Origin: Heterodontus francisci
Taxonomy: Eukaryota
Assembly (NCBI RefSeq): GCF_036365525.1
Contig: NC_090378.1
Location: forward strand, 112,892,351 to 112,956,350
Direction: 5' to 3'
DNA: 64,000 nt
The stretch's first letter is position 1. The number at the start of each line of letters is the position of its first letter. Made by a program: the position numbers and the translations under genes. This document shows, one piece after another, positions 3,255-52,124 of this stretch. The notes under the pieces were generated by a model, which was not told where the DNA came from, made no database searches, and worked only from the letters and a program-made list of their open reading frames with translations.

Positions 3255-3705
3255 GAATGAAGGGATTGTCCCATGAGAAGAGATTGAGTAGACTAGGCCT
3301 AAATTCCCTGGGGTTTAGAAGAATGAGCGATGATCTCATTGAAACATATAAATTTCTTAAGGGATTTGACAGGGTAGATGCAGATAAGGTGTTTTCCCTG
3401 GCTGGGGAATTTAGAACTAGGGGTCAGAATAAGAGGTCAGCCATTTAGGATGGAGATGAGGAAAAATTTCTTCACTCAAAGGGTTGGGAATATTTGGAAT
3501 TCTCTACCCCAGAGAGCTGTGGATGTTCAATCATTGAAATAGCGATTGATAGATTTTTGGGTGCTAAGGGAATTAAGGAATATGGGGATAATGTGGGAAG
3601 GTGGAGGCAAGATAGCAGATCAGCCATGACCTTACTGAATGGCGGAGCAGCTTTGAAGGGATGAATGACCTAACGGTGCTCCTATTTCTTATATATTCTT
3701 ATGAT
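3255..3705 (+). mobile_element. CR1 3' fragment
   Basis: MKGLSHEKRLSRLGLNSLGFRRMSDDLIETYK plus CR1 3'UTR. Confidence 0.82.
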
Positions 3706-3718
3706 TCGGCGTTCTAGG

Positions 3719-4510
3719 GTGCAGGGTTCTACGTGCTGGAGTGCAATGTTCTACTTCATGGAGTGCAGGGTTCTACGTGCTAGAGTGCAGGGTTCTACGT
3801 GCTAGAGTGCAGGGTTCTACATGCTGGGGTGCAGGTTTCTATGTGCTAGAGTGCAGGGTTCTACATGCTGGGGTGCAGGGTTCTACATGCTGGGGTGCAG
3901 GTTTCTATGTGCTAGAGTGCAGGGCTCTACATGCTGGGGTGCAGGTTTCTATGTGCTAGAGTGCAGGGTTCTACATGCTGGGGTGCAGGGTTCTACATGC
4001 TGGGGTGCAGGTTTCTATGTGCTAGAGTGCAGGGCTCTACATGCTGGGGTGCAGGTTTCTATGTGCTAGAGTGCAGGGTTCTACATGCTGGGGTGCAGGG
4101 TTCTACATGCTGGGGTGCAGGTTTCTATGTGCTAGAGTACAGGGCTCTACATGCTGGGGTGCAAGTTTCTATGTGCTAGAGTGCAGGGTTCTACATGCTG
4201 GGGTGCAGGGTTCTACATGCTGGGGTGCAGGGTTCTACATGCTGGGGTGCAGGTTTCTATGTGCTAGAGTGCAGGGTTCTACATGCTGGGGTGCAGGTTT
4301 CTATGTGCTAGAGTGCAGGGTTCTACATGCTGGGGTGCAGGGTTCTACATGCTGGGGTGCAGGGTTCTACATGCTGGGGTGCAGGGTTCTACATGCTGGG
4401 GTGCAGGTTTCTATGTGCTAGAGTGCAGGGTTCTACATGCTGGGGTGCAGGGTTCTACATGCTGGGGTGCAGGGTTCCACATGCTGTGGTGCAGGGTTTC
4501 TTGTGCTGGG
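3719..4510. repeat. 22-bp minisatellite (~36 units)
   Basis: Units GTGCAGGGTTCTACATGCTGGG and GTGCAGGTTTCTATGTGCTAGA plus variants in tandem. Confidence 0.97.
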
Positions 4511-5137
4511 AAATTTGACTAATTATACGCAGCTTGAGATCTGTTGACGGTTAATTGTCTAGGGGCCGTTCTGTAGACTGGCAGCTGCTGGTAAATTCTT
4601 GTCTCCTATCCTCAGGTTCAAATAAAAACCCAGCAATACTTTGACACCCATTGGGATAGAATTGTGCTTGTCCATTTGGATTGCTAATTTGAATTTGTAT
4701 CTTGAATGGGTGGATATGGCAATGGAGGAAAGCATTGCATATTTATATAAAATGGTGTCTGGAAGAGAACAGAGATACACTGAGGTTTCTTTGTGAGGTG
4801 GTGTTGCACTGCAAGTGATGTGGGCCTAAGGGCTGAGAGATTTTGGTTCTTCAGTGCTCAGAACTGTAGAAATGAAATTTCTGCCAATTTCTATCAAGGA
4901 CAATATTTCAACGGTACAATTGTTTCGTATGTTTTGTCAGCATTTCTGTACGGATCAGGCTGATTTAGGGAGCGGCTGCATCGAAAGTTGGAGGAATGAA
5001 AGCCAGACAGCAAATGTCCAGTTTTCGACTACTGCTTTGCCTTCATACTTACACAAACCTGGCCCTTTTTGTTTTGCTTTCAACTGGGTCCTGTTTACGT
5101 TGGCGTGTCTTGTCGATTTATCAACAAATCTCAAAGT

Positions 5138-8034: not shown

Positions 8035-8534
8035 ATAAAAAAATCAGTTTATCTAACTTTTTTTATGAAAGGGGGGTACCCATTGACTCAAAGCTTCCTT
8101 AAAGAGGCAAATGTGCACCTGTCTTGCCTCCCTCTCAGTTCACATGCAACCTGCTCCCCACAGGGTCACACTCGGCCATTCCCTCCCTTCCAGGATCAGC
8201 AGGCCCAGATGATCAGTCCTGCCAATAGAATGAAAATAGGTGTCAAACATTGAAACAGTTTGACCCAGACTTAAGGAGAACACACTGAGAGGGAAAGAGA
8301 GATTCCCCAGGTCCCTGACCAAAAAGGTATTCTGAAGAAGTTCTTGGTGAAGATAGTTGGTCTTGCTTACAGCGCACACCTACATGACCATTATACATAA
8401 AATGTACAACCAACAAAGAGGCAAACACTGGGGATGTGAGAAAGTCATGTTGTTCTAAAAACCCCCTTCCAAAATTCCTTTGGCATGGTGAATGTCTCAC
8501 TCTCTCCCTTGCTCCAAATCCCAGTCTTGCCTTC

Positions 8535-8634
8535 TGTGTTCTGATGAAGGGTCACTGACCTGAACCGTTAACTCTGCTTCTCTCTCCACAGATGCTGCCA
8601 GACCTGCTGAGTATTTCCAGCAATCTTTGTTTTT
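8535..8634 (+). mobile_element. 100-bp Penelope-type terminal fragment with 17-bp TSD
   Basis: ATCCCAGTCTTGCCTTC at 8518-8534 and 8635-8651; body nearly identical to 29091-29190. Confidence 0.72.
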
Positions 8635-9964
8635 ATCCCAGTCTTGCCTTCACTCTTTCTCATTCCCAATTTTGTATATGGAGGGAGCGGGGTTAGACTC
8701 TGCACAAAGATGGCAGAGAGCTTCATGTAACAGCCATCAGATAGCCCAGGTGACAGGTGCGCACGCTGGTCTTTACTATGTTGGCCGTCTGCCTTATACA
8801 CTGGCATTTCAATGGTGACATGCTCTGGGATGTTTCTAGTGTGCAAGTACAAGTTCATGTTGCGAAAAAGAGCTTTGTAAATACAAGTCTTATCTTCCTG
8901 GTTTCATTGCAGTAACACTGTGAACTTCCATAGGCAGGTGGCTTGGCACATGTCCTGCTCACATGCCTCCTGGGCTATATAGAGGACCTTGCCCTCTTAA
9001 TAGAACTTACTCTCAGTTTAGAACCTTTAGGGCTGTGCTTTCCTCAGTTTAACTTGTACAGAAATTGTGGACTCTAGTCGGAAGGTGCTGAAAGATTTGT
9101 TTGTGCATTGTTACTGCTATTTGAAATGGGCACAATTAAAGTGAGATTAAAGAGTGAAAATGAACCTTCACTTGTTAAGCGTTGTGAAGCTCTGGGTAAA
9201 GAACTCTCCTTACATAAATCATGGAGAATTTGCAGCAAAATATTATCAAGGTATTTACCAGAATTTCAAAACTGAAAGCTTACTTTCATTCAGAACGGAA
9301 GTTACTCATTCGAAGGGAGGGGAAGATTTGAACTTATCAGTACATGGTTGTTCAAAGTTTTCTTTCATTTATTTTCAGGATGTGGCAAGGCTGGCATTTA
9401 TTACCCATTCCCAGCTGACTTTGAAAAGGTGGTGGTGAGCAGTTTGAAATTTGGACACAGTTCACAGCCAGTTAGAAATAGCCCTTTAAATTCATAATTC
9501 ATATACGCCCATCATTGCCATATTAGAGCAGGCTATATTGGCACTTCATCTCAATCAGTGAAAACGAGCCTGTTAAATTTATAATGTACTTACGTATTTA
9601 CTCATTTATAAGGTGCGTCACATATAAGCAACCCCCAGCCACAAATTTGGCCATACAAATTTATGAGCCATCTAAAAGACAAGGGCAAACAGTTGGATGC
9701 TTCCTCCTGCCAAAACTCTCACCTTGCTCCCAGACAACTCTATCAGTACATCTTCTCTATGCTCTTTCCCATTTTAATCAGCACATTCCTGTCTGCTGTT
9801 TCTCTGACCCTCCAACATGGATATATAAGTGACATGCCTCTTCCCTCCACCTCCAATTCCTGTCTGGGCTCCCCCCACTTTCTGGTTTGAAATCTCCTTT
9901 TCACCCTGTTCCACTGCCACCCCTCCAACGTCCCGAAGGTCATCCCCATAGCTCTGTGTGTTGC

Positions 9965-25065: not shown

Positions 25066-25500
25066 GTGTTACATTCAGCTTGGGCTGATGTTAAGCAAGC
25101 ATTTGCTGAAGGAAATCGAGGACCAGTGGCCCTGTGGAGGCCTTCAGTTTGCCATTCAGAGGGCCGTCTCTGAACTGAAATTAGAGTAGGTCCGATTAAA
25201 AATGGAACAGTGACATTCAGTACTGGTGTTACCATGATAGTACCTTAGTGACTGAGTCTTCTCTGCAAGGCAGTCGTAACAGCAATTCACTGCAGAGAAA
25301 GTCAAGATCGTCAGGTCAAGCTGCAAATGGCCATTTACCAATGACTGCTGTGCTATCATCTGGGAATCAGGGTGCTGCTCATTAACTGAGGCTCATGAGG
25401 CCCAGGTTTGTAAATCCCAATGGCGGGCAAGGATGGGATCCAGGGAAGAGGTTCCAACCCCCTGCCACAGGGAGCAAGAAGAACTATGTCCCACCCATGT

Positions 25501-26035
25501 TACTCAGTGACATACTGAGGGAGCTGGATTCACATCAGTAGAGATACAGCCACTAAAACAGGGCACTGGAGGAGGGGATACTGAGTGACAGCGTGAGGGA
25601 GCTGGATTAGCATCAGTGGAGATACAGTAAATAACACAGGGTGCTGGGGGAGGGGATACTGAGTGACAGTGTGAGGGAGCTGGATTAACATCAGTGGAGA
25701 TACAGTCAGTAACACAGGGCGCTGGGGGAGGGGATACTGAGTGACAGTGTGAGAGAGTTGGACTAACATCAGTGGAGATACAGTCACTAACACAAGGCGC
25801 TAAGGGAGGGGTTACACAGTGACACAGTGAGGGAGCTTGATTAACATCAGTATAGATACAGTCACTAACACAGAGTGCTGGGGGAAGGGTTACTCAGTGA
25901 CAGTATGAGGGAGCTGGATTAACTTCAACCGAGATACAGTCAGTAAAACAGGGCCCTGGGGGAGGGAATACTGAGTGACAGACAGTGTGAGGGAACTGGA
26001 CTAACAACAGTGGAGACACAGTCACTAAACAAGAT
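25501..26035. repeat. ~78-bp tandem repeat (~7 units)
   Basis: TACTGAGTGACAG..GAGCTGGATTAACATCAGTGGAGATACAGTC recurs at 25579, 25657, 25735 and onward. Confidence 0.93.
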
Positions 26036-26288
26036 GCTGAATGGAATGGTGGTACAAATTGCATTGAAAAGCACTTATCATGTCTGATGATCAAAATGAT
26101 ACTGAGCTTCTTAGATTTTCCCTTTTCACATCATACAAAAGTTTTTGGCCAAATGTTTAGATGTGGACAGTGTCCCTTTAAGAGGGCCTTGATGGTGCTC
26201 TGTCTCAAGGCTGGCTCCAGTTACTTCCAATGAAGTTGCATGAGTGTTGTAAATAATTGTAAACTGAAACTCCAGCCCACAACTCAGA

Positions 26289-26749: not shown

Positions 26750-27110
26750 TAAGTATAGGAGCAGGAGGAGGCCATTCAACCCTTCGAGACTTTTCTACCA
26801 TTCAATTAGATCATGGCTGGTCTGCATCTCAATTTCATTTATACGTCTTTGCCCCAAATTCCTCGATACCATTACCCAACAAGTATCTATCAATCTCAGT
26901 CTTGAAATTTTAAATCGACCCCCAGTCTTGACAGTTCTTTTTGGGGGAGAGAGTTCCAGATTTCCACTCCCCTTTGTATGAAGAAGTGTTTCTTGACAAC
27001 ACTCCCACAACAGTCGAGGTCTAATTGTTCTGGACTCCTTCGCCAGAGGAATTAGTTTCTCTCTAATTACCCAATCAAATCCTTTAATCATTTTAAACCC
27101 CTCAATTAGG
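26750..27110 (-). mobile_element. CR1 3' fragment
   Basis: MIKGFD.VIREKLIPL remnant plus 3'UTR. Confidence 0.72.
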
Positions 27111-27499
27111 ACTTTGAATTTTCAGAAGTAGGCTGTTCACGGCTCAGCCCAGACAGCAGTTCAAAATGTTTGGAGTGCAGACATTTCTACTGGAATAATT
27201 ATTTTGCTTTAGTTGCAAACGCACAAGGTGATAATGGTAGTGGGAAAAACTGTAATGAGCATCTTGATGGCCTCACAATGACAATGAGAAAGAGCAACCC
27301 TCAGGTCACTGGGTCCGGGCTCAGTGTTGGCCTTAAAGATGGAGTCGTGGGAAGTGCTGCTGCTCCTCCCGGCTCCACGTTCAGCAAAGTTACTCTGCCT
27401 TCTTTGTTGCAAGCAAACCGTAGACTGGTTTCTGTTGGTGCTGCCTGCAATGGTGCTGGCTGCCCCAAGGCAAACCAATGTTTCAGAGGGTGCTCCTAC

Positions 27500-28550
27500 A
27501 AGTTCAGAGGCAGGAAGCAAATGGTAATAGTCAACAGGTGCTTCTGTGACTGGAAGGCTGTTTCCAGTAGAGTGCTGCAGTGCTCGGTACTGGGTACCTT
27601 GCTTTTCATGGTATATACCAATGATTTAGACTCAAATGTAGGGACAATGATTTAGACTCAAATGTAGGGAGCATGATTAAGAAGTTTGCAGATGATATAA
27701 AAATTGGCTGTGAGGTTGTAGTGAAGAAGAAATATGTGGACTGCAGGAAGATATCAATGGACTGGTCAGGTGGGCAGAAAAGTGGCAAATGGAATTCAAT
27801 CCAGAGAAGTGTGAGGTAATGCATTTGGGGAGGGCAAACAAGGTAGGGGAATACACAATAAATGGTAGGATTCTGAGAAGTATAGAGGAACAGAGAGACC
27901 ATGGAGTGCATGTCCACGGATCCTGAAGATAGTAGGACAGGTAGATAAGGTGATTAAGAAGGTTTATGGGATACTTTACTGTCTGGCATAGAATACAACA
28001 GCAAGGAGGTTATGCTAGAACTATATAAAACACTAATTAGTCCACAGCTAGAGTACTGTGTACAGTTGTGGTCACCACATTACAGGAAGGATGTGATCAC
28101 GCTAGAGAGGGTACAGAGGGGATTTACGAGGATCCTGCCAGGAAAGGAGAATTTTACTTATGAGGAGCGATTGGATATGCTGGAGTTGTTATCTCTAGAA
28201 CAGAGGAGGCTGAGGGGAGATTTAATTGAGGTGTATAAAATTATGAGGGGCCAAGATAGAGTGGATAGGAAGGATCTATTTCCCTCAGCAGAGAGGTCAA
28301 TAACCAGGGAGCATTGATTTAAAGTAATTGGTGGAAGGATTAGAGGGTGGAACTCACTGCCTGAATGGGTGGTAGAGGCCTTATCACAATAAAAAAAATA
28401 CTTGGATAAGTACTTGTAGTGTTGTAAACTACAGGGCTACGGAACAAGAGCTGGAAAGTGGTATTAGGCTGGATAGCTCGTTTTCAACTGGCATAAACAT
28501 GATGGGTTGAATGGCCTCATTCTGTGCCATACATTTTCTGTTTCGATGTT
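27500..28550 (+). mobile_element. CR1 3' 1 kb fragment
   Basis: FADD-coding tttgcagatgat near 27686 and ORF 28012..28317 with QLEYCVQLWSP. Contains a perfect 26-bp tandem duplication at 27619-27670. Confidence 0.87.
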
Positions 28551-28752
28551 AGGTTTCTTAATTGCATATACAAAGAGCCTCACACCAGCTTCGTGGGTAA
28601 AGGACACCTCGTTGTTCTTACCCAGTACAATGGCACACGTCCAGGCTGTTTTGGGGCCATAGTGGTCTGAATAGCAGCCAAGAAACTGGGACTGTGTGGA
28701 CCAGTTTCTAGGTCATTATCTCATCGCTGTTTGAAGGAGCTTGCTGTTCTCA

Positions 28753-29229
28753 GAGCATGACGGCCCCTTTCTCATTTTCAATTTTTTTTTTCTCTTTATT
28801 TTATTTTAGTTTGTTTCATCTTTCATTTTTCTTACCATGTGCCTGCCCACTTTTTTTTTTCATGTTTGTACTTTGGGCCAGGGCTGTTCATTTTTCTGTC
28901 CATTAACACCCTCTCTGCACTAACACTTTGTCTTTCAACTCACCATTAACGTACCGTTTGCCTTTGTTCCATGACCTTCTGGTCAGTTATTCTCTGTGAC
29001 GCTGCCCTATCAACACCTTTACTTTTGTTATCTCTTGCCCCACCCCCGCTTTATTTGCTTAAAACCTCTTACATTTCTAGCCTTTGTCAGTTCTGAGGAA
29101 GGGTCACTGACCTGAAACGTTGACTCTGCTTCTCTCTCCACAGATGCTGCCAGACCTGCTGAGTATTTCCAGCATTTCTTGTTTTTATTTCAGATTTCCA
29201 GCATCTGCAGTATTTTGCTTTTATTATAC
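28753..29229 (+). mobile_element. Penelope-like element terminal fragment with 11-bp TSD
   Basis: TGCTGTTCTCA at 28742-28752 and 29230-29240. Contains the CTGANGA..GAAACGTT motif typical of PLE terminal repeats. No coding sequence is present, so the class is inferred. Confidence 0.7.
29089..29125 (+). ncRNA. Minimal type I hammerhead ribozyme motif
   Basis: AGTT-CTGAGGA-AGGGTCACTGACCT-GAAA-CGT-T-GACT: CUGANGA and GAAA cores, a helix II hairpin, palindromic ACGU helix III, a GUU cleavage triplet and a 4-bp helix I (AGUU/GACU). Confidence 0.62.
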
Positions 29230-29539
29230 TGCTGTTCTCAAATTTGGTTGCTGCGTTTCTCCACATTGCAGTAGTCCAAAATAATTCATTGGCTGTTTAA
29301 TTCTCTGGGACGGTGAAAGGTGCTATATAAATGCAAAGTTCTCTCTTTTTTCATGAAGACACAGCAGCTTTAAGAATAGCTCGCTGTGGCACTGAGCTTG
29401 GGTTGTGCACGCCGAGGGGCTGAATAGCCTACTCCTGGCCCGATGTTCCTTATACACTGCCCCTTTAAGAGTGCTCAGTGTAGGCTGTGCACTCTAAAGG
29501 GGTTGAATAGTCTACTCCGATGTTCCTGTGGTCACTCAG

Positions 29540-29880
29540 ACGCTGCCGCTTTAAGAGTGCTGGGCTGTGCATGGAGTTGTCTTCACTGCGGATTGTGAGT
29601 GCCGAGGGGTTCTGACGTGTGTCAGTGAAAGGCTCGGGTCAGCTCTGGGCTGGACAGGACATTCAGAGCGGGCTCTATCACATGTGGGGAGCCAGGCTGG
29701 TACCCAGCTCCCGCCGCACTGACATACACAGCAAGCGGGGGAAGGCGGGCGGAGACTCGGCACCGTGTAGGCAGCAGTAAACACACATCCTCGAGAGCAG
29801 AGGCTGGCGCTTCCCTCCCAGTAACAACAAAGTATGAAGACAGTAGTTAGTGGCTGAGAGGCAGCACTAGCAGCAGCAAC
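29540..29880 (+). promoter_or_regulatory. Candidate promoter/5'UTR of the RXR gene
   Basis: Non-repetitive and CpG-enriched relative to the window. Contains TGACGT (29613-29618), palindromic CACATGTG (29679-29686), GC box GGGCGG (29747-29752) and forkhead-type GTAAACA (29777-29783) directly upstream of the exon. The TSS cannot be determined. Confidence 0.55.
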
Positions 29881-29929
29881 ATGTACGGTCACTACCATCA
29901 CTTCATGAAGCTCCCTGTCACCTACAACC
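29881..29929 (+). CDS. RXRG: First coding exon of a retinoid X receptor, RXR-gamma type (MYGHYHHFMKLPVTYN + phase-1 intron)
   Basis: ATG at 29881 in context gcagcaacATG (A at -3). 16 codons + 1 nt precede a consensus GTGAGT donor (29930-29935). The peptide aligns without gaps to the recalled human RXRG N-terminus MYGNYSHFMKFPAGYG, with the same recalled exon length and phase. Paralog assignment rests on 16 aa only. Confidence 0.78.
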
Positions 29930-30659
29930 GTGAGTACACTGCCGGCTTCTCCCTCAAGTAACTATCTCCCTCTTCCTTTCTCTCTCTCACTACTTTCGCA
30001 TTCTGTGCTGTGAAGTTTTTTTAAAAATCATTACTTAGACTTTTTTTTTATTTAAAAAGGGAATTGTTACTCTTTCGCGCCCTCAACTCGCTCTCTTTTT
30101 TTTTTCTTATTTTGTTTAAAACAAACCGCAAATGGGTTCTAGGACCGGAGCAATTTGCTAAAAAGACAATAAAAAGCTCATTTTCCGGGCAAATGTCGCT
30201 TGCTTTGAGGTGCTCGGATTTTCTGCCGCGCCGCTCTGAACTTGGGGCGATTGTGTTGTAGCGGCTTCCCCGCCTCCCCTAACATCCCGCCCGGGAGGCC
30301 TGGCAGTGAAAATCGGGCGGACATGCGAGCACCCAAAATGAAAATTTTCCTACTTCCCTTCTCCACCCTCCCCCCCAACCAAAAAAAAATTAAGTCCAAT
30401 TTTAACTCACTGAAAACCCATTCACAGAGTTAAAATCGAGCCCCATTGAGCCTCTGCACAGGGCACTGGGTGGAGGGGAAATGTGGCATTTTGCATTTTG
30501 TAGAAACATTTCAGATTCCCAGGGCTGAGACTGTCCCTTCCCAATAAAGACTTAAGCTGAACTCATTCATGTTCCGTTCACAGGTTACTTCTTAACCCTA
30601 GACCCCTCTGAACCGCTGTACACAGCTAATGATACTGCCAGTCCCAAGAACTGACTGCA

Positions 30660-31050
30660 AAAATCTCAGTGTACAAATGTGTAGCAATACAGTATAGTGT
30701 GTATGAAATATAAACATACAGCACTCTTGTCAAAAAGTATCTTCTGTATAAATGTACAGCACTTACTCTGTCAGTGTATTCTCTGAGTACATATCACTCA
30801 CTGCAATAGTATAAATGTACTACACTTGGTGTTTATTTTGTAAAAACACAGCACTCATTGTCATGCATTTTATCCTATATGCTCTCAGCATACATTGTAT
30901 CTCATCTAAATATACAGCATTTAACATCATTACAGTATACAATCTATATAAATCTGTGTGCTCAGTGTTTTTCTTACACAATGCAGTGTATGATGGTGAA
31001 TGCTATACATTTAAATGGAATGAACTATGAGTGTACAGCAACTACTGATA
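30660..31050. repeat. AT-rich degenerate tandem/low-complexity region
   Basis: Recurring TACAGCA(C/T)T and TATAAATGTAC motifs at irregular spacing. Confidence 0.5.
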
Positions 31051-32369: not shown

Positions 32370-33270
32370 CGCCAGCACAGAAAGGGGCCATTCAGCCCAT
32401 CATGTCTGTGTTGGCTCTTTGAAAGATCTGTGCAGTTAGTTCCTCACCCCAGCTTTTTCCCCATAACCCTGCAAAGTAGTCCTCTTCAAGTACATTTCCA
32501 GTTGTCTTTTGAAAGTTCCTATGGGATCTGATTCCACCCCCCCCCCCCTTTTCAGGTGGTGAATTCCAGGTCTTAACAACCCTCTGTGTGAAGAAATTTC
32601 TCCTTATTGCCCCTCTAGTTATTTTGTCAATTATTTTAAATCAATGACCTCTGGTTACCAACCCTCTTTCCTGAGGAAATCATTTCTCCCTACTTGTTCT
32701 ATCAAAACCCCTCATAATTGTGAATACCTCGATTTAATCTCCCCTTAACCTTCTCTGCTGGAAGGAGAACAATCCCAGCTTCTTCAATCTCTCCACATAA
32801 CTGAACTCCCTCATCCCTGGTATCATATTTGTAAATCTCCTCTACCCCCTCCAAGGACGACCTCCTTCCTAAAGTGTGAAGACCAGAATTGTACACAACA
32901 CTCCAGCTGATGCCTAACCAGCGATTTATAAAGGTTTAGCATGACTTCCTTGTTTTTGATTTCAATGCCCCTATTTACAAAGCTTATATTTCCCACGTGC
33001 TTTCTTAACCACCTGATCAACTTGCTCTGCCACTCTCAAAGATTTGTGAATATGATCAGATGCCTCTGCTTTTAAACTGCCCTCAGAATAGTACCATTTA
33101 GATTATACTGGCTTTGCATGTTGCTTCTCCCAAACTGTAGCACTTCATACTTTTCCACGTTAAACTGTATCTGCCATGTGTCTGCCCCTTTCAGCAGTCT
33201 ATGTCTCCTGAAGTCTGCTACTACCATGCTCACGATTTACTATGCTGTCAAGTTTTGTATCATCTGCAAA
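32370..33270 (-). mobile_element. CR1 3' fragment, head-to-head with the young CR1
   Basis: ORF 32823..33020 has LVRHQLECCVQFWS; 3'UTR toward 32370. Confidence 0.83.
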
Positions 33271-33288
33271 TACATTGTTCATCCTAAA

Positions 33289-35540
33289 GGCCCACTCAAG
33301 GACAGAGATGCGAATCTTTGCGTGGAGCCAGAGGAAATGGGCGAGGTGCTAAATTGGGGGAAGGCTAATTATAACAATATTAGGCAGGAACTGAAGAATT
33401 TAGATTGGGGATGGCTGTTTGAGGGTAAATCAACATCCGACATGTGGGAGTCTTTCAAACGTCAGCTGATTAGAATCCAGGACCAGCATGTTCCTGTGAG
33501 GAAGAAAGACAAGTTTGGCAAGTTTCGGGAAGCTTGGATAACACGGGATATTGTGAGCCTAGTCAAAAAGAAAAAGGAAGCAGTTGTAAGGGCTGGAAAG
33601 CTAGGAACAGATGAAGCACTTGAGGAATATAAAGACAGTAGGAAGGAACTTAAGCAAGGAGTTAGGAGGGCTAAAAGGGGTCATGAAAAGTCATTGGCAA
33701 ACAGGATTAAGGAAAATCCCAAGGCTTTTTATACATGTATAAAGAGTAAGAGGGTAACCAGGGAAAGGGTTGGCCCACTCAAGGACAGAGATGGGAATCT
33801 ATGCGTGGAGCCAGAGGAAATGGGTGAGGTGCTAAATGAGTACTTTGCATCAGTATTCACCAAGGAGAAGGACTTGGTGGATGATGAGCCTAGGGAAGGG
33901 AGTGCAGATAGTCTCAGTCATCTCATTATCAAAAAGGAGGAGGTGTTGGGAGTCTTGCAAAGCACTAAGGTAGATAAGTCCCCAGGGCCTGATGGGATCT
34001 ACCCTAGAATACTGAGGGAGGCAAGGGAAGAAATTGCTGGGGCCTTGACAGAAATCTTTGCATCCTCATTGGCTACAGGTGAGGTCCCAGAGGACTGGAG
34101 AATAGCCAATGTTGTTCCTTTGTTTAAGAAGGGTGGTAAGGATAATCCAGGAAATTATAGGCCGGTGAGCCTTACGTCAGTGGTAGGGAAACTATTAGAG
34201 AGGATTCTTTGGGACAGGATTTACTCCCATTTGGAAACAAACAAACTTATTAGTGAGAGACAGCATGGTTTTGTGAAGGGGAGGTCGTGTCTCACTAATT
34301 TGATTGAGTTTTTTGAGGAAGTGACGAAGATGATTGATGAGGGAAGGGCGGTGGATGTTGTCTATATGGACTTTACTAAAGCCTTTGACAAGGTCCCTCA
34401 TGGCAGACTGGTGCAAAAGGTGAAGTCACACGGGATCAGAGGTGAGCTGGCAAGATGGATACAGAACTGGCTCAGTCACAGAAGACAGAGGGTAACAGTG
34501 GATGGGTGTTTTTCTGAATGGAGGGATGTGACTAGTGGTGTTCCGCAGGGATCAGTGCTGGGACCTTTGCTGTTTGTAGTATATATAAATGATTTGGAGG
34601 AAAATGTAGCTGGTCCGATTAGTAAGTTTGTGGACGACAGAGGTTGGTGGAGTTACGGATAATGATGAGGATTGTCAGAGGATACAGCAGGATATAGATC
34701 GGTTGGAGACTTGGGCGGAGAAATGACAGATGGAGTTTAATCCAAACAAATGTGAGGTAATGCATTTTGGAAGGTCTAATGCAGGTGGGAGGTATACAGT
34801 AAATGGCAGAAACCTTAGGAGTATTGACAGGCAGAGAGATCTGGGCGTACAGGTCCACAGGTCACTGACAGTAGCAACGCAGGTGGATAAGGTAGTCAAG
34901 AAGGCATACGGCATGCTTGCCTTCATCGGTCGGGGCATAGAGTATAAAAATTGGCAAGTCATGTTGCAGCTGTACAGAACCTTAGTTAGGCCACACTTAG
35001 AATATTGCGTGCAATTCTGGTCGCCACACTACCAGAAGGACGTGGAGGCTTTGGAGAGGGTACAGAAGAGGTTTACCAGGATGTTGCCTGGTCTGGAGGG
35101 CATTAGCTATGAGGAGAGGTTGGAAAAACTCGGATTGTTTTCATTGGAACGACGGAGGTGGAGGGGCAACATGATCAAGGTTTACAAAGTTATGAGCGGC
35201 ATGGACAGAGTGGATAGTCAGAAGCTTTTTCCCAGGGTGGAAGAGTCAGTTACTAGGGGGCATAGGTTTAAGGTGAGAGGGGCAAAGTTTAGAGGGGATG
35301 GGCGAGGCAAGTTTTTTTACACAGAGGGTGGTGAGTGCCTGGAACTTGCTGCCAGGGGAGGTGGTGGAAGCAGGTACGATAGCGACATTTAAGAGACATC
35401 TTGACAAATATATGAATAGGAAGGGAATAGAGGGATATGGGCCCCGGAAGTGCAGAAGGTGTTAGTTTCGGCAGGCATCAAGATTGGCGCAGGCTTGGAG
35501 GGCCGAATGGCCTGTTCCTGTGCTGTACTGTTCTTTGTTC
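33289..35540 (+). mobile_element. Young CR1-clade LINE, 5'-truncated ORF2 (RT) plus 3'UTR
   Basis: ORFs 33118..34662 and 34730..35392 carry KSPGPDGIYP, NYRPVSLTS, YMDFTKAFDKVPH, GVPQGSVLGP and LEYCVQFWSP. Frameshift near 34637, a stop near 34725 and a frameshift near 35315. (TGTTCT)-type tail; CTAAA at 33284-33288 and 35540-35544 is a possible TSD. Confidence 0.93.
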
Positions 35541-37239: not shown

Positions 37240-40200
37240 CAAGATCCTCCTCACTAACATCTGGGAATTTGTACCAAAATTGGGAGAGCTGTCCCACAGA
37301 TTAGTCAAACAACAGCCTGACAGAGTGATACACGCCAAATCATGCCTTACAGCCAATGTTCCAGACTCTTCCATCACCATCCCTGGGTATGTCCTGTCCC
37401 ACCAGCAGGACAGACCCACCAGAGGTGGCAGCACACTGGTATGCAGTCGGGAGGGAGCTGCCCTGGGAGTCCTCAATGTTGGCGCTGGACCCCATGAAGC
37501 TTCATGGCAACATGGGCATGGAAACGTCCTGCTGATGACCACCTACTGCTCTCCCTCAGCTGATGAATCAGTACTCCTCCATGTTGAACAGCACTTGGAA
37601 GAAGCACTGAGGGTAGCAAGGGCACAGAATGTACTCTGGGTGGGGGACTTCAATGCCCATCACCAAAGAGTGGCTCAGTAGCACCACGACTGACCAAGCT
37701 GGCTGAGTCCTAAAGGACATAGCTGCTAGACTGGGCCTGCAGCAGGTGGTGAGAGAACCAACAAGAGAGAAAAATCTATTTTACCTTACTCTCAACAATC
37801 TACCTGTTTCAGATAGATCTGTCCATGACAGTATTGGTAGGAGTTACCACCACACTCTCCTTGTGGAGATGAAGTCCCACTTTCACACTGAGAACACCCT
37901 CATTAGTGTTGTGTGGCACTACCATCAAGCCAGGGAACCAACCCTGGTTCTATGAGGAGTGTAGGAGAGCATACCAGGAGTAGCACCGAGCATACCTAAA
38001 AATGAGGTGCTAACCTGGTGAAGCTCCAAGACAGGGCCTGGATGCATGCTAAACAGCTATAGACGAGAGCTAAGCGATCCCACAACTAATGGATCAGATC
38101 AAAGCTCTGCAGTCCTACCACATCCAGTTGTGAATGGTGGTGGACAATTAACAGGAGGAGGAGGCTCTACAAATATCCCCATCAATGGTGGGGGTGCCCA
38201 GCACATCAGTGCAAAAGTCAAGGCTGAGACAGTCGCAACCATCTTCAGTCAGAAGTGCTGAGTGGATAATCCGTTTTGGTCTCCTGAAGCCTCCAGCATC
38301 ACAGATGCCAGTCTTCGGACAATTTGATTCACTCCACGTGATATCAAGAAAAGGTTGAAGGCACTTGATATTGCAAAGGCTATGGGCCCTGACAACATTC
38401 CAACTGTAGTACTGAAGATTTGTGCTACAGAGCTTGCCGTGCCCCTAGCCAAGCTGTTCCAGTACAGCTACAACACTGGCATCTACCTGAGAAAGTGGAA
38501 AATTGCCCAGGTGTATCCTGTTCACAAAAAGCAGGACACATCCTATCCGGCCAATTATTGCAATTATAATCAGTCTACTCCTAGAACTGTACTCCAGGGA
38601 GAATGCTGTCACTGAGACTGCCCTCAATGCAGCCCAGTCTCTACCAGTCATGGATGAGCTGGACATACAGCCAACCAAATCGGAACTCAGTGATGCCATT
38701 GATTCCCTAGCCAGCGGAAAAGCCCCTGGGAAGGACAGCATTACCCCTGAAATAATCAAGAGTGCCAAGCCTGCTATACTCTCAGCACTACATGAACTGC
38801 TATGCCTGTGCTGGGACGAGGGAGCAGTACCCCAGGACATGCGCGATGCCAACATCACCCTCTATAAAAACAAAGGTGACCGCGGTGACTGCAACAACTA
38901 CCGTGGAATCTCCCTGCTCAGCATAGTGGGGAAAGTCTTTGCTCGAGTCGCTCTGAACAGGCTCCAGAAGCTGGCCGAGCGCGTCTACCCTGAGGCACAG
39001 TGTGGCTTTCGTGCAGAGAGATCGACTATTGACATGCTGTTCTCCCTTCGTCAGATACAGGAGAAATGCCGTGAACAACAGATGCCCCTCTACATTGCTT
39101 TCATTGATCTCACCAAAGCCTTTGACCTCGTCAGCAGACGTGGTCTCTTCAGACTACTAGAAAAGATCGGATGTCCACCAAAGCTACTAAGTATCATCAC
39201 CTCATTCCATGACAATATGAAAGGCACAATTCAACATGGTGGCTCCTCATCAGAGCCCTTTCCTATCCTGAGTGGTGTGAAACAGGGCTGTGTTCTCGCA
39301 CCCACACTTCTTGGGATTTTCTTCTCCCTGCTGCTTTCACATGCGTTCAAATCCTCTGAAGAAGGAATTTTCCTCCACACAAGATCAGGGGGCAGGTTGT
39401 TCAACCTTGCCCGTCTAAGAGCGAAGTCCAAAGTACGGAAAGTCCTCATCAGAGAACTCCTCTTTGCTGACGATGCTGCTTTAACATCTCACACTGAAGA
39501 ATGCCTGCAGAGTCTCATCGACAGGTTTGCGTCTGCCTGCAATGAATTTGGCCTAACCATCAGCCTCAAGAAAACGAACATCATGGGGCAGGATGTCAGA
39601 AATGCTCCATCCATCAATATTGGCGACCACGCTCTGGAAGTGGTTCAAGAGTTCACCTACCTAGTCTCAACTATCACCAGTAACCTGTCTCTAGATGCAG
39701 AAATCAACAAGCGCATGGGTAAGGCTTCCACTGCTATGTCCAGACTGGCCAAGAGAGTGTGGGAAAATGGCGCACTGACACGGAACACAAAAGTCCGAGT
39801 GTATCAGGCCTGTGTCCTCAGTACCTTGCTCTACGGCAGCGAGGCCTGGACAACGTATGCCAGCCAAGAGCGACGTCTCAATTCATTCCATCTTCGCTGC
39901 CTTCGGAGAATACTTGGCATCAGGTGGCAGGACTATATCTCCAACACAGAAGTCCTTGAAGCGGCCAACACCCCCAGCTTATACACACTACTGAGTCAGC
40001 GGCGCTTGAGATGGCTTGGCCATGTGAGCCGCATGGAAGATGGCAGGATCCCCAAAGACACATTGTACAGCGAGCTCGCCACTGGTATCAGACCCACCGG
40101 CCGTCCATGTCTCCGTTATAAAGACGTCTGCAAACGTGACATGAAATCGTGTGACATTGATCACAAGTCGTGGGAGTCAGTTGCCAGCATTCGCCAGAGC

Positions 40201-41320
40201 TGGCGGGCAGCCATAAAGACAGGGCTAAATTGTGGCGAGTCGAAGAGACTTAGTAGTTGGCAGGAAAAAAGACAGAGGCGCAAGGGGAGAGCCAACTGTG
40301 CAACAGCCCCAACAAACAAATTTCTCTGCAGCACCTGTGGAAGAGCCTGTCACTCCAGAATTGGCCTTTATAGCCACTCCAGGCGCTGCTTCACAAACCA
40401 CTGACCACCTCCAGGCGCGTATCCATTGTCTCTCGAGATAAGGAGGCCCAAAAGAAAGAAAGAAAGAAACTCCCGATCATCAGCAAAATAATGGAAGGTG
40501 TTGTCGACAATGCTATCAAGTGGCACTTATTCAGCAAGGACCTGGTCATGACTAGTCAGTTTGAGTTCTGCCAGGGCCACTCAGCTTCTGACTTCATTAC
40601 AGCCTTTGTCCAAACATGGACAATGAGCTGAAATTTCAGAGGTGAGGTAAGAGTGATTGCCCTTGATATCAAGGCAGCATTTGATCAAGTGTGGCATCAA
40701 GGAGCCCTAGCAAAATTGAAGTCAATGGGAATCGGGGAAAACTAGCGCAGAGGACAATGGTTGGAGTTGTTGGAGGCCAATCATTTCAACCCCAGGACAT
40801 CACTGCAGGAGTTCCTCATGTCCTGTCCTAGGCCCAACCATCGTCAGCTGCTTCATCAATCACCTTCCCTCCAACATAAGGTCAGTATTGGGGATGTTTG
40901 CTGATGATTGCACAGTGTTCAGTTCCATTCACAAGTCCTCGGATAGTGAAGCAGTCCGTGTCCTGATGCAGCAAGACCTGGACAATATCCAGGCTTGGGC
41001 TGATAAGTGGCAAGTAACATTTGCGCCGTATAAGTGCCAGTCAATGACCATCTTCAACAAGAGAGAATCTAACCATCTCCCCTAGACATCCAATGACATT
41101 ACCATTGCTGAATCCCCCACTATCAACATCCTGGGGGTGACCATTGACCAGAAACTGAACTGGACAAGCCACATATAGCATAGCTACAAGAGAAGGTCTG
41201 AGGCTGGAAATTCTGTGGTGAGTAACTCAACTTCTGACTCCCCAAAGCCTGTCCACCATCTACAAGGCACAAGTCAGGAGCATGATGGAATACTCTCCAC
41301 TTGCCTGGAGGAGTACAGCT
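37240..41320 (+). mobile_element. Decayed CR1-group LINE ORF2 (second family; endonuclease + RT), interrupted by the RTE
   Basis: APE endonuclease remnants (VLWVGDFNAHH) and RT remnants (AMGPDNIP..VLK.CA.ELAVPL, GMFADDCTVF). The host sequence resumes directly after the RTE tail at 40469. Confidence 0.85.
38582..40468 (+). mobile_element. RTE-clade non-LTR retrotransposon, 5'-truncated, uninterrupted RT frame
   Basis: ORF to 40404 with RT motifs (FIDLTKAFD, GVKQGCVLAP, LFADD) and an RTE-type C-terminus (LRWLGHVSRMEDGRIPK, CSTCGRACHSRIGLYSH). Short 3'UTR, (AAAG)n tail, and ACTCC duplicated at 38577-38581 and 40469-40473. Confidence 0.93.
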
Positions 41321-45740: not shown

Positions 45741-45892
45741 TCACTGTACCTTTCCACACCACTTAATAGGGATTTTCTCAACCACTTTGTCACAGCACCC
45801 CTGTTGCATTTTGAGATTTCTGACTGTTTCACCTACTAGGGATTTTTGGGTTCAAGATAATCTGGTTTTGACAACCAGTCCAATTCAGGATA

Positions 45893-46017
45893 GAAGGGTC
45901 ACTGACCTGAAACGTGAACTCTGCTTCTGTCTCCACAGATGCTGCCAGACCTACTGCGTTTTTCCAGCGCTTTCTGTTTTTATTTGATTTCCAGCATCCG
46001 CAGTATTTTGCTTTGAT
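45893..46017 (+). mobile_element. Penelope-type terminal fragment with 9-bp TSD
   Basis: TTCAGGATA at 45884-45892 and 46018-46026; body homologous to 29098-29225. Confidence 0.7.
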
Positions 46018-49480: not shown

Positions 49481-52124
49481 TTGCTGGATTCTGCCCCCCT
49501 CCTCCATCCCCCTTCCCCCACCCCTTCCTGGGCCCGCACATTATTGCTAGAGATCAGCAGGAGCTGCCAAAGCATAAGAATCATTAATATAAAGGCACTC
49601 TTTAAAAGATTTGAGGTTATCCCCAGTGGAATTAATGTTATTTTTTGGAAGGGAGCTTGCAATTTATGAGCAGTTTGGGAGGATTGCCATCCTTGTGGTG
49701 AAAATGTAATGCTGTCCTTTGTTTTGCATTTGTTCTGACTTCAGTAGAACTTTGTGTCGTGTTTGATCCCTGGATGTTGCTAAGAGGGAACTTTCCTGTT
49801 GTTCAGCTCTCCTAAGTGCTTCACAAGGCTTCCTTATATTGCAGTAAGGAACCCGGCAACACTGTTGCTCATTCCTCTCGACCCACACACAGTTTTCTCA
49901 GACTGTTCACAAGTGGCCTGTTATCTGCATTAACATCCAATCATTCTAATACCAGCTCAGGCAATCCTCCAAATCCACTCCAGATGATACTAAGGCCACC
50001 AGCTGCCAGGTGTTTTCCCTCCAATTTCACCTCCGCAATTCCATTGGCCGCTGATCCCCATCAATTGGCTAGGCCGCAGGTGCTGGAACTCCTGCCACAG
50101 GGAGATGCGGCACTGCTGATTCCGGCCGTTTATCCATCCAGTCCCCTCATTTTTTTTTTTCCATCATAGTCCACCCCAACATGATCTCACCCATACATTA
50201 TCAGCAGGTCAGATTGTGAGGCCCACATCCAGATGCATGCATCCTGCTTCATCTAGTTCCACAGATATACACACTGAGGAATGGAGGGCTCGCCATACAC
50301 TCCACCTGGAATTGGCAACCTCCCCCTAGATACACTAGTTGAACATTACTGAGGGAAACCAAAACAATTTGGGTTGTAGTAGAGGCTGTCTTTTATATCT
50401 GAGAGCATTTCCTTGACAGGCACTCTGAGGCCTGTACGGAATGTGCCCTTCAGTTGATCCGCTCGGAGTTTGGCGTTCTGCCAACTGTTTGGAGGCTCTT
50501 TGGTCAGTATTTCAAGTTGCTCCACGTTCCTGAATGTCAGGCAGAATCGGTCTCTGGAGAGCCTCTCTAAAGAGGATCTGTGTTAAATTTTAACTCGGCG
50601 ATCTACAAAAGACAGTATTTCCTGCCCCCTCCCTGCACCATCCCTGCGCAAATAAGGGAGTTCAAAGAGATGCTTCATAATCAGATAGCGGCCCTCCAAT
50701 GAGAGCTTCAGGTTAAGCAAGGTCCAACAGTCAAGGGTTTTCAGGAGCTGATGAAATATGTTTACATCGAAATGTTCCCGCTCGTTGGCTCAGTACAGCA
50801 GCTGCAGCCGGTCACTCTGACTCACTACGGCTGTCCAACATTGCAACTCTTTCAACTTGTGTATTGTTGGTCAATAAAAGGGTAAGCATTCCTCGAACTG
50901 CAGTGTTGAGCACTGATTCTCCATCTCGAAACATCGCACTGCAGCATGAGGCAGGTTTGACATTGAAAACATGTCGCATTGTGGGCTCTACATTAAGACC
51001 CTTGCCACTGATCTTGCACCGTGGGACCTCTCCCTCATCTCCCCTCATGCCCTGAACTGTTCTGCCAGACCTCCCACCCCGTGCATTGCCCTGGCCACCT
51101 GGATATTGCGTGTCAGCTCAGCTTTCAGTGAGGGCTAAGTAGTGGAGCCTAGCCTGACCCTGCCCTCTCCCCATGAGCGTGCTTTCCGCTGGAGAGCAGC
51201 CAAGGCTGATATCCGCTCCTTAGCTCAACGGGAGCCAAGGCCACCAGCACCATCCCCACTACAGCCTTGGCTTAATTCAGCTAAAAGAACCACCACCACC
51301 AGCAATAATATGTCTCTTGCATTGTACAACATCCTAAAGGACTTCATTGGAGCATCATCAAGACCAAATTTAACACCGAGCCGCATGAGATAGTAGGGCA
51401 GGTGACCAAAAGCTTGTCCAAGGGTAGGGTTTAAGGAAAATCATACAGGAGGAGTGAGAGGCAGAGGTTTAGGGCAGGAATTCCGGAACTTGGGGCCTTG
51501 GCAACTGAAGGCGCGGCCGCAATGGAGTGAAGAAAATCTGGGATGCTCAAGAGGCCAGAATGACCTGGGATTGAACCTGACTCCTGTGGTCAGTAAGGCT
51601 AATTGCACTGTGAACTGTAGAGTTAATCGTGAGATGCAGCCCATTAGGAAAGAATGTCAGTTAAATCTCCTGCTTTGTGTGACCACAGTCCCCAAGAGGC
51701 AGCGGAAACCAGCCAGGGGAGGTGTTCCTTACCACAATCCATTGACCCCACTGGATAATGCACATATTGTAGTTAGCAGGTGAGGACAGGACCAGGCTGT
51801 ATTGTGACACCCTCTGCATCGAATAGCCCACTCATTGTCTGGGCCCATTTATGAAACCATCGACCACCTGTGCAAACTAGACATGTAACTCTTTGCAAAG
51901 AGTTGGACGGGGAGGTCAGGCAATTCTGGCTATTTGGAGCAGAGGAAGAGAGGGATGTAACCAAGTGACTTGGGGGAGTGGACATTTGCTCACCCCCAAT
52001 TCATGATTGAGGAGACCAGAATGTGGCCCAAGAACAGAATTGTGCCCCTGTGCCTTTGTCATTCAAAACTCTGCTGCCCATATCCGAACTCTTACCAAAT
52101 CCCGTTCATCCATCATCCCTGTGC

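Follow-up and report, generated by a model that had tools for sequence, protein, structure and literature searches.

Introduction

Minimal type I hammerhead ribozymes have been described in the pLTRs of metazoan Penelope-like elements (PLEs), where monomers are reported to show no cleavage and dimers and trimers low cleavage (PMC4209133). In the same report the G10.1-C11.1 pair is called highly conserved, although it lies outside the search descriptor. For the lizard element PAc, cleavage is described only in the presence of the element's protein, the report speaks of no RNA-seq ends at the cut site, and uncut RNA is presented as the main template (PMC11167929). Among the triplets described as cleavable by hammerheads is GUU (PMC3138052). 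With regard to the elements themselves, Neptune and Nematis are described as sharing a CX2-5CxxC linker before the endonuclease (PMC8557442), Penelope pLTRs are reported to hold promoters (PMC2377424; PMC6765202), and the Penelope of D. virilis is described as TATA-less (PMC2377424). Non-LTR retrozymes have been reported from one chondrichthyan (bioRxiv 10.64898/2026.07.22.740005). Our search by title and start of abstract returned no paper on shark PLE ribozymes; the supplements of PMC4209133 and of the retrozyme preprint may list shark motifs.

Here we analyse a stretch of 64,000 nucleotides of the Heterodontus francisci genome (contig NC_090378.1, positions 112,892,351 to 112,956,350), hereafter the window. 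An earlier note on this DNA had proposed that an intact minimal hammerhead core, carried by a PLE insertion upstream of an RXR start codon, could form a cleavage site in RXR RNA.

Results

The hammerhead letters, AGTT CTGAGGA AGGGTCACTGACCT GAAA CG TT GACT, are read directly from the + strand of the window at 29089-29125, exactly as the earlier note had written them. Hereby, the 5' strand of helix I (29089..29092) faces its 3' strand (29122..29125) in 4 bp, one of which is a U.G pair. The catalytic box C3-A9, followed by an extra A between positions 9 and 10.1 (29100), occupies 29093..29100, and helix II (29101..29113) comprises 5 bp with a 3-nt loop and is closed by a G.U pair at 10.1-11.1. 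The GAAA box, a loopless palindromic ACGU helix III (29117-29120) and the GUU triplet fill 29114..29121, which places the predicted cut at 29121/29122. In fold predictions both the 4 bp of helix I and the 5 bp of helix II form in the isolated 37-mer, with no gain in stability over shuffled sequences (z = +0.45). The covariance-model check that had been suggested for the motif came out negative, as an Rfam search of 27000-31000 with E values up to 10 gave seven matches, none of which is a hammerhead family. For a minimal motif, neither the missing Rfam match nor the shuffle-level fold is surprising. When a loose generic core pattern was used, the window gave one unrelated match, at 50748, which is absent elsewhere in 726 kb of sampled loci and was treated as chance rather than as a related motif. 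It lies in a degraded coding-like repeat (50300-51500) that has, by impression only, the look of a DNA-transposon remnant.

The motif is part of a 477-bp insertion at 28753..29229 (+), which we assign to the 5'-truncated 3' end of a Neptune-type PLE and which contains the last ORF codons, the 3' region/pLTR, the hammerhead and a tail. A scan for flanking repeats identified TGCTGTTCTCA as the sole 11-bp direct repeat between the flanks searched, enclosing exactly 477 bp, so that both the insertion and its 11-bp target-site duplication proposed earlier are borne out. The left copy of the duplication lies at 28742..28752 (+), its last 3 nt also matching the element (microhomology), and the right copy at 29230..29240 (+). 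We regard the target duplication as genuine because both flanks continue one older SINE-like repeat (28711..29337, +; repeat family D20), which was split by the insertion and has other copies in the window. This interrupted repeat is presumably DeuSINE/SacSINE1-like.

Within the insertion, the first 8 bp (28753..28760, +) represent the end of the RT/GIY-YIG ORF with its TGA stop at 28758-28760. A TATA-like TTAAAA with a putative promoter role is found at 29059..29064 (+), at -30 from 29089, and the TCAGTT at 29087..29092 (+), which resembles an initiator and coincides with a hotspot of short-copy 5' ends (see below), probably marks the start of the element RNA. The pLTR tail past the cut site spans 29126..29229 (+) and contains an upstream ATG at 29144 which opens a 46-codon frame. 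The insertion ends 0.65 kb upstream of an RXR-gamma-type first-exon ATG (29881). This ATG lies on the same strand, 760 nt past 29121, in agreement with the orientation and the distance of about 0.76 kb given before.

To place the insertion in its family, exact genomic matches were counted in the 6.01-Gb genome. The 29-nt core has 11,187 exact matches compared to 0 for a reversed control, which shows that the motif is not due to chance; a 36-nt stretch of the tail has 25,035 (reversed control 0). For the full 477-bp insertion we obtained 7,679 candidate genomic matches, the best 40 of which, itself included, are 90-100% identical. Longer siblings extend upstream into the end of an ORF, namely that of the two near full-length, frameshifted parents of about 3.2 kb, L032 (C1:16564000-16571500) and L035. 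Hereby, L032 carries two motifs 3,235 bp apart around the remains of a reverse transcriptase and an endonuclease, and L035 shows a Cx4Cx2C linker ahead of GIY-YIG motifs. The RT and GIY-YIG motifs in both were read frame by frame, and a Pfam scan of seven frameshifted parent pieces returned 0 families. In both parents a short upstream frame of about 30 codons lies between the hammerhead and what looks like the main ATG, and each of these two frames is preceded by a splice-acceptor-like tract. Partial-tandem or inverted pLTRs, together with a tail, are present in L032, L035 and L036. Separately, L036, L047/L048, L098 and L125 show short copies paired as fold-backs, with a head-to-head junction inside the hammerhead. 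Judged by motifs in decayed relatives, and not by a tree, the parent element is of the Neptune/Nematis type.

Conservation of the motif was evaluated in a sample of 92 tail-anchored copies, which was drawn from the first 100 matches listed on contig C1 (10 were not fetched) and from neighbours in the same loci. For 77 of these copies a gap-free alignment was obtained, in which the subfamilies vary at N7 (U in 48, A in 26), in loop II and at the 10.1-11.1 pair. The latter is paired in 73 copies, as G.U in 40, A-U in 23 and G-C in 10, and unpaired in four. Compensatory changes were not seen in the remaining four pairs of helix II. The extra A after A9 (equivalent to 29100) is found in 71/77, and only 28/77 copies have a fully intact core. 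The family-consensus check proposed in the earlier note thus turned out favourably, with core and helix pairing kept across family copies, and its assignment to the PLE minimal type I hammerheads, with a palindromic ACGU helix III that would need a partner, is confirmed by the family comparison. The window copy, with its G.U pair, departs from the published G10.1-C11.1; we keep the PLE-hammerhead membership because this pair is a frequent rather than a defining trait. Going by its sequence features, the motif is therefore a new copy of an already described kind, i.e. a PLE minimal type I hammerhead in a pLTR. It stands as a single copy and not as the tandem array of at least two units with complete hammerhead by which non-LTR retrozymes are recognised.

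The core was claimed to be intact. This holds for the catalytic letters, which are unchanged, but the copy differs at 20 sites in about 470 bp from the majority of 29 close siblings, and two of these differences lie inside the 37-nt motif. They are U>G at 29097 (N7) and A>G at 29122 (position 1.1), the latter creating the U.G pair of helix I beside the cut site; position 1.1 is A in 77/77 sampled copies. At least two changes in 37 nt are expected with a chance probability of P = 0.47, so that the decay of the motif corresponds to neutral expectation. Together, the two private substitutions allow the core and helix II to pair with a downstream pyrimidine tract, giving a rival hairpin. In line with this, the predicted probability of helix II is 0.006 in the window copy as compared to at least 0.75 in 22 of the 26 siblings (out of 29) which passed the alignment filter. 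When four longer stretches around the motif (52-141 nt) were folded, the open-core hammerhead fold had a predicted probability of 1e-5 to 7e-8, compared to 0.003-0.025 for the sibling L002. Fold models, which omit tertiary contacts and protein, thus predict misfolding of the window copy in its native surroundings. For the bare 37-mer, the minimum-energy fold does show the hammerhead helices (P = 0.14 vs 0.034 for the sibling), and given this result co-transcriptional folding could differ from the equilibrium prediction. In window and sibling 37-mers alike, the double-hammerhead form is predicted to be less stable than the best dimer fold by about 12-15 kcal/mol. Cleavage of dimers was reportedly observed by Lunse et al. 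in 2017.

Two further family copies were found in the window. The nearest upstream copy (8541..8569, +; 20.5 kb away) has its core broken by A15.1>C, and the downstream copy (45888..45916, +; 16.8 kb away) has lost the 5' catalytic box and carries G at H17. As both cores are broken, the window offers no intact partner in cis; the 200 kb beyond it contain two further near matches, each with changes in the core or in helix III. The upstream copy belongs to a short stub (8515-8650) that starts at the 5' hotspot and has a 15-bp target duplication. Among the other repeats of the window are tandem arrays at 3573-4600 and 25423-26046, with spacings of 22 bp and 78 bp, respectively.

The ends of the 92 sampled copies were mapped onto window coordinates. 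Hereby, 37 of the 5' ends fall at 29085-29093, the 5' edge of the motif, 32 lie further upstream, 16 at 29094-29117, 3 at 29118-29125 and 4 further downstream. The hotspot is preceded at a distance of 30 bases by TTAAAA, which is replaced by TTATAA in a sister subfamily. Copy 3' ends cluster at two sites in the tail, at 29185-29194 (38/92) and at 29222-29229 (40/92). For a footprint of cleavage we compared genomic matches with a non-T before the cut site (987) with those having a non-T before a control site 4 nt on (1,169). True starts amount to 8/30 at the cut site vs 5/30 at the control site (p = 0.53), and thus show no excess in a test of low power, in which only starts preceded by a non-T are visible; by eye, 3 of the 8 cut-site starts and about 2 of the 5 control starts are deletions or inversions. 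With these counts, and with 3/92 starts around the cut site, we rejected, for this family, the short copies as a record of cutting in vivo.

Since copies begin at the 5' edge of the motif, run past the cut site and show no excess there, their templates were likely uncut. Stalling at the structure is disfavoured as a cause of the hotspot, as copies traverse the motif completely and end only on its far side, and a spliced upstream exon was discarded because the copies have no shared sequence before their starts. The 5' hotspot likely represents the element's transcription start; a 3' splice site (CAG, 29088-29090) also fits its position. The idea of a cutting record had been prompted by four head-to-tail contig joints, from three runs of two studies, which return to 29122/29123, the first base past the predicted cut. 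These joints could be rare cut-derived or circular forms, for which the genomic start counts give no support.

The RXR start codon named in the earlier note belongs to an RXR-gamma-type first exon, whose coding part (29881..29929, +) comprises 16 codons and 1 nt, is followed by a GT donor at 29930 and is single-copy in the genome. As the 16-residue peptide is too short for a database search, it was compared directly with RXRG protein sequences: 12 of 36 RXRG-type proteins share 8-10 of the 16 residues from position 1, compared to 5/16 for the best of 120 RXRA-query matches. Contigs of four runs guessed to be RNA, from two samples, reach 29929 and stop there, and three of them carry 30 letters unlike the intron, which fits a spliced first exon. 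Among the contigs listed none bridges insertion and exon, and single-locus contigs begin at 29445-29625; since contigs break at repeats and do not indicate starts, we give this no weight as evidence. None of the records holding the sequence is labelled as RNA.

The start-codon claim thus stands for this 16-codon exon, but not for a complete gene, as the remainder of the RXR gene was not found in the assembly. Searches of the contig near the window and of the window plus 200 kb did not find exons for AF1, the DNA-binding or the ligand-binding domain of RXR, the other RXR loci being recovered as positive controls. In the assembly, only two RXR DNA-binding exons were found, on C32 and C29, and two RXR loci are seen elsewhere; an RXR exon in it matches the protein labelled Heterodontus francisci RXR-alpha-A by NCBI with 100% identity. 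For comparison, three RXR genes are reported in catshark (PMC10492535). A stretch of 200 N lies 39 kb after the exon (C8, about 112,961,350), and a PBX gene is found on the same contig at 0.9 Mb from the exon, pointing away from it. PBX1 and RXRG are known to be linked, and this neighbour agrees with an RXRG identity of the exon; its orientation is unlike the human arrangement. A search for MAPEG genes added no information on synteny. An RXRG first exon that lacks its gene body would reflect either an assembly gap, a misjoin or a truncated gene. The presumed first intron also holds a CR1-like remnant (33076-35392, +) and a 637-codon open LINE reverse-transcriptase frame (38491-40404, +), which we assume to be RTE-like.

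Discussion

We consider it highly probable that the window copy is a neutrally decaying passenger beside the RXRG exon which is predicted to misfold and likely cuts no RXRG RNA. With so many family copies, a position near a gene is no more than chance predicts: if 20,000 genes are assumed, about 19 should carry an exact core in sense orientation at most 1 kb upstream. That the potential cleavage site which the earlier note saw in RXR RNA is live is not supported, in view of the private changes, the predicted misfolding, the broken neighbouring cores, the lack of excess starts at the cut site and the published cleavage data (PMC4209133; PMC11167929), and regulation of RXRG by the motif is unlikely. 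Some observations run against a mere passenger, the fold of the bare 37-mer among them. The catalytic letters are all intact, N7 being a free position; the TATA-like and initiator-like signals are kept on the strand of the gene; and thousands of family RNAs could pair with the motif in trans.

It is improbable, though the best placed of the alternatives, that the insertion affects RXRG as DNA, with the pLTR providing a minor upstream start or altering a nearby promoter and the hammerhead being incidental. The TATA-like box at -30 from an initiator-like start on the strand of the gene, the clustering of family 5' ends at that site and the promoters reported in Penelope pLTRs (PMC2377424; PMC6765202) would all suit such an effect. 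However, the subfamily of the window copy has TTAAAA and not TTATAA, transcripts begun in the pLTR would have a leader of about 790 nt with 8 upstream ATGs, the proximity is explained by chance, and the copy diverges like its siblings.

We give distinctly less credence to a scenario in which RXRG RNA that began upstream or arose by read-through undergoes cleavage after 29121 by means of a second family RNA, perhaps with the help of a protein, thereby lowering or reshaping RXRG output. The intact core letters with a cleavable GUU, the 10.1-11.1 pairing kept in 73/77 copies, the abundance of family sequence in contigs from presumed RNA runs and the protein-assisted cleavage of the lizard element (PMC11167929) are compatible with it. 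Against these stand the predicted misfolding, the energetic cost of the double hammerhead, the missing cis partner, the absence of excess genomic starts at the cut site, and the position of the cut 760 nt before the ATG, where it would touch only transcripts starting upstream of it.

Even more doubtful is a combination of the two, in which the insertion was co-opted as an alternative RXRG promoter, its pLTR start giving a transcript with the hammerhead as its first 37 nt, and this leader is clipped in trans in the presence of family RNA and protein, so that retrotransposon activity would switch off an RXRG isoform; if true, this would represent a vertebrate transposon ribozyme regulating a nuclear-receptor gene. 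Finally, that the hammerhead resemblance is pure chance within a repeat is hardly credible and already largely refuted by the family evidence, since the shuffle-level fold, the missing Rfam match and the unrelated hit of the loose pattern are outweighed by the pLTR position in a PLE, by the extra base after A9 and the palindromic 15.2-16.2 that match the published motifs (PMC4209133), and by subfamily variation at N7, in loop II and at 10.1-11.1, where pairing is preserved.

Returning to the decaying passenger, its origin may be pictured as follows. Transcription from the pLTR promoter of the parent would begin with the opening bases of the hammerhead. The resulting RNA, still uncut, would be primed by the element's protein for reverse transcription at an internal tail site, about 65-105 nt beyond the cut site. 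Copying of the front end of the RNA would yield the abundant stubs of 100-140 bp, and the 477-bp window copy may have arisen from the 3' pLTR by copying which ended early and involved a microhomology of 3 nt. Any activity of the motif in the parent would require a dimer or protein help. In the most likely case the window copy itself is of little importance, since the motif is already described, occurs more than 11,000 times and has decayed in this copy. The starts at the 5' edge, behind TATA- and initiator-like signals and not at the cut site, yield a testable prediction on the role of PLE hammerheads, and the RXRG exon without a body flags an assembly gap or a truncated gene.

Compared to known systems, the family shares with the non-LTR retrozymes a type I hammerhead described as related to that of PLE pLTRs (bioRxiv 10.64898/2026.07.22.740005); retrozymes are described there as tandem arrays, whereas the window insertion is a single duplication-flanked copy which includes a PLE ORF end. 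The endonuclease-bearing (EN+) Neptune and Nematis PLEs, as described by Craig et al. (2021, PMC8557442), resemble the family in their reverse transcriptase, Cys linker and C-terminal GIY-YIG, as well as in partial-tandem pLTRs, inverted truncated copies, a tail and a hammerhead near the 3' end; unlike full elements of this type, the window holds the last 477 bp only. PAc of Anolis carolinensis, a Poseidon element described by Frangieh et al. (2024, PMC11167929), shows two tail end-sites downstream of the hammerhead, as found here, and is likewise reported to use uncut RNA as template with no pile-up of RNA or copy ends at the cut site. It belongs to another clade, and its ORF is described as starting inside the hammerhead, whereas here the first ATG lies 23 nt past the cut and opens a short frame.

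The closest relatives are the minimal hammerheads of metazoan PLE pLTRs reported by Cervera and De la Pena (2014, PMC4209133). Differences concern the shark host, which is apparently not among the hosts named there, the 5-bp helix II, and the 10.1-11.1 pair, which in this family is mostly G.U or A-U and not G-C; unlike the published motifs, the window copy also has a predicted rival hairpin, and a private wobble pair flanks its cut site. In all other respects compared, the window motif agrees with that description: it is of type I with CUGANGA, GAAA and NUH, has a 4-bp helix I, an extra base between 9 and 10.1, a palindromic 15.2-16.2 and no loop 3, and its family, like those described, is scattered through the genome as thousands of single copies left by truncated elements.
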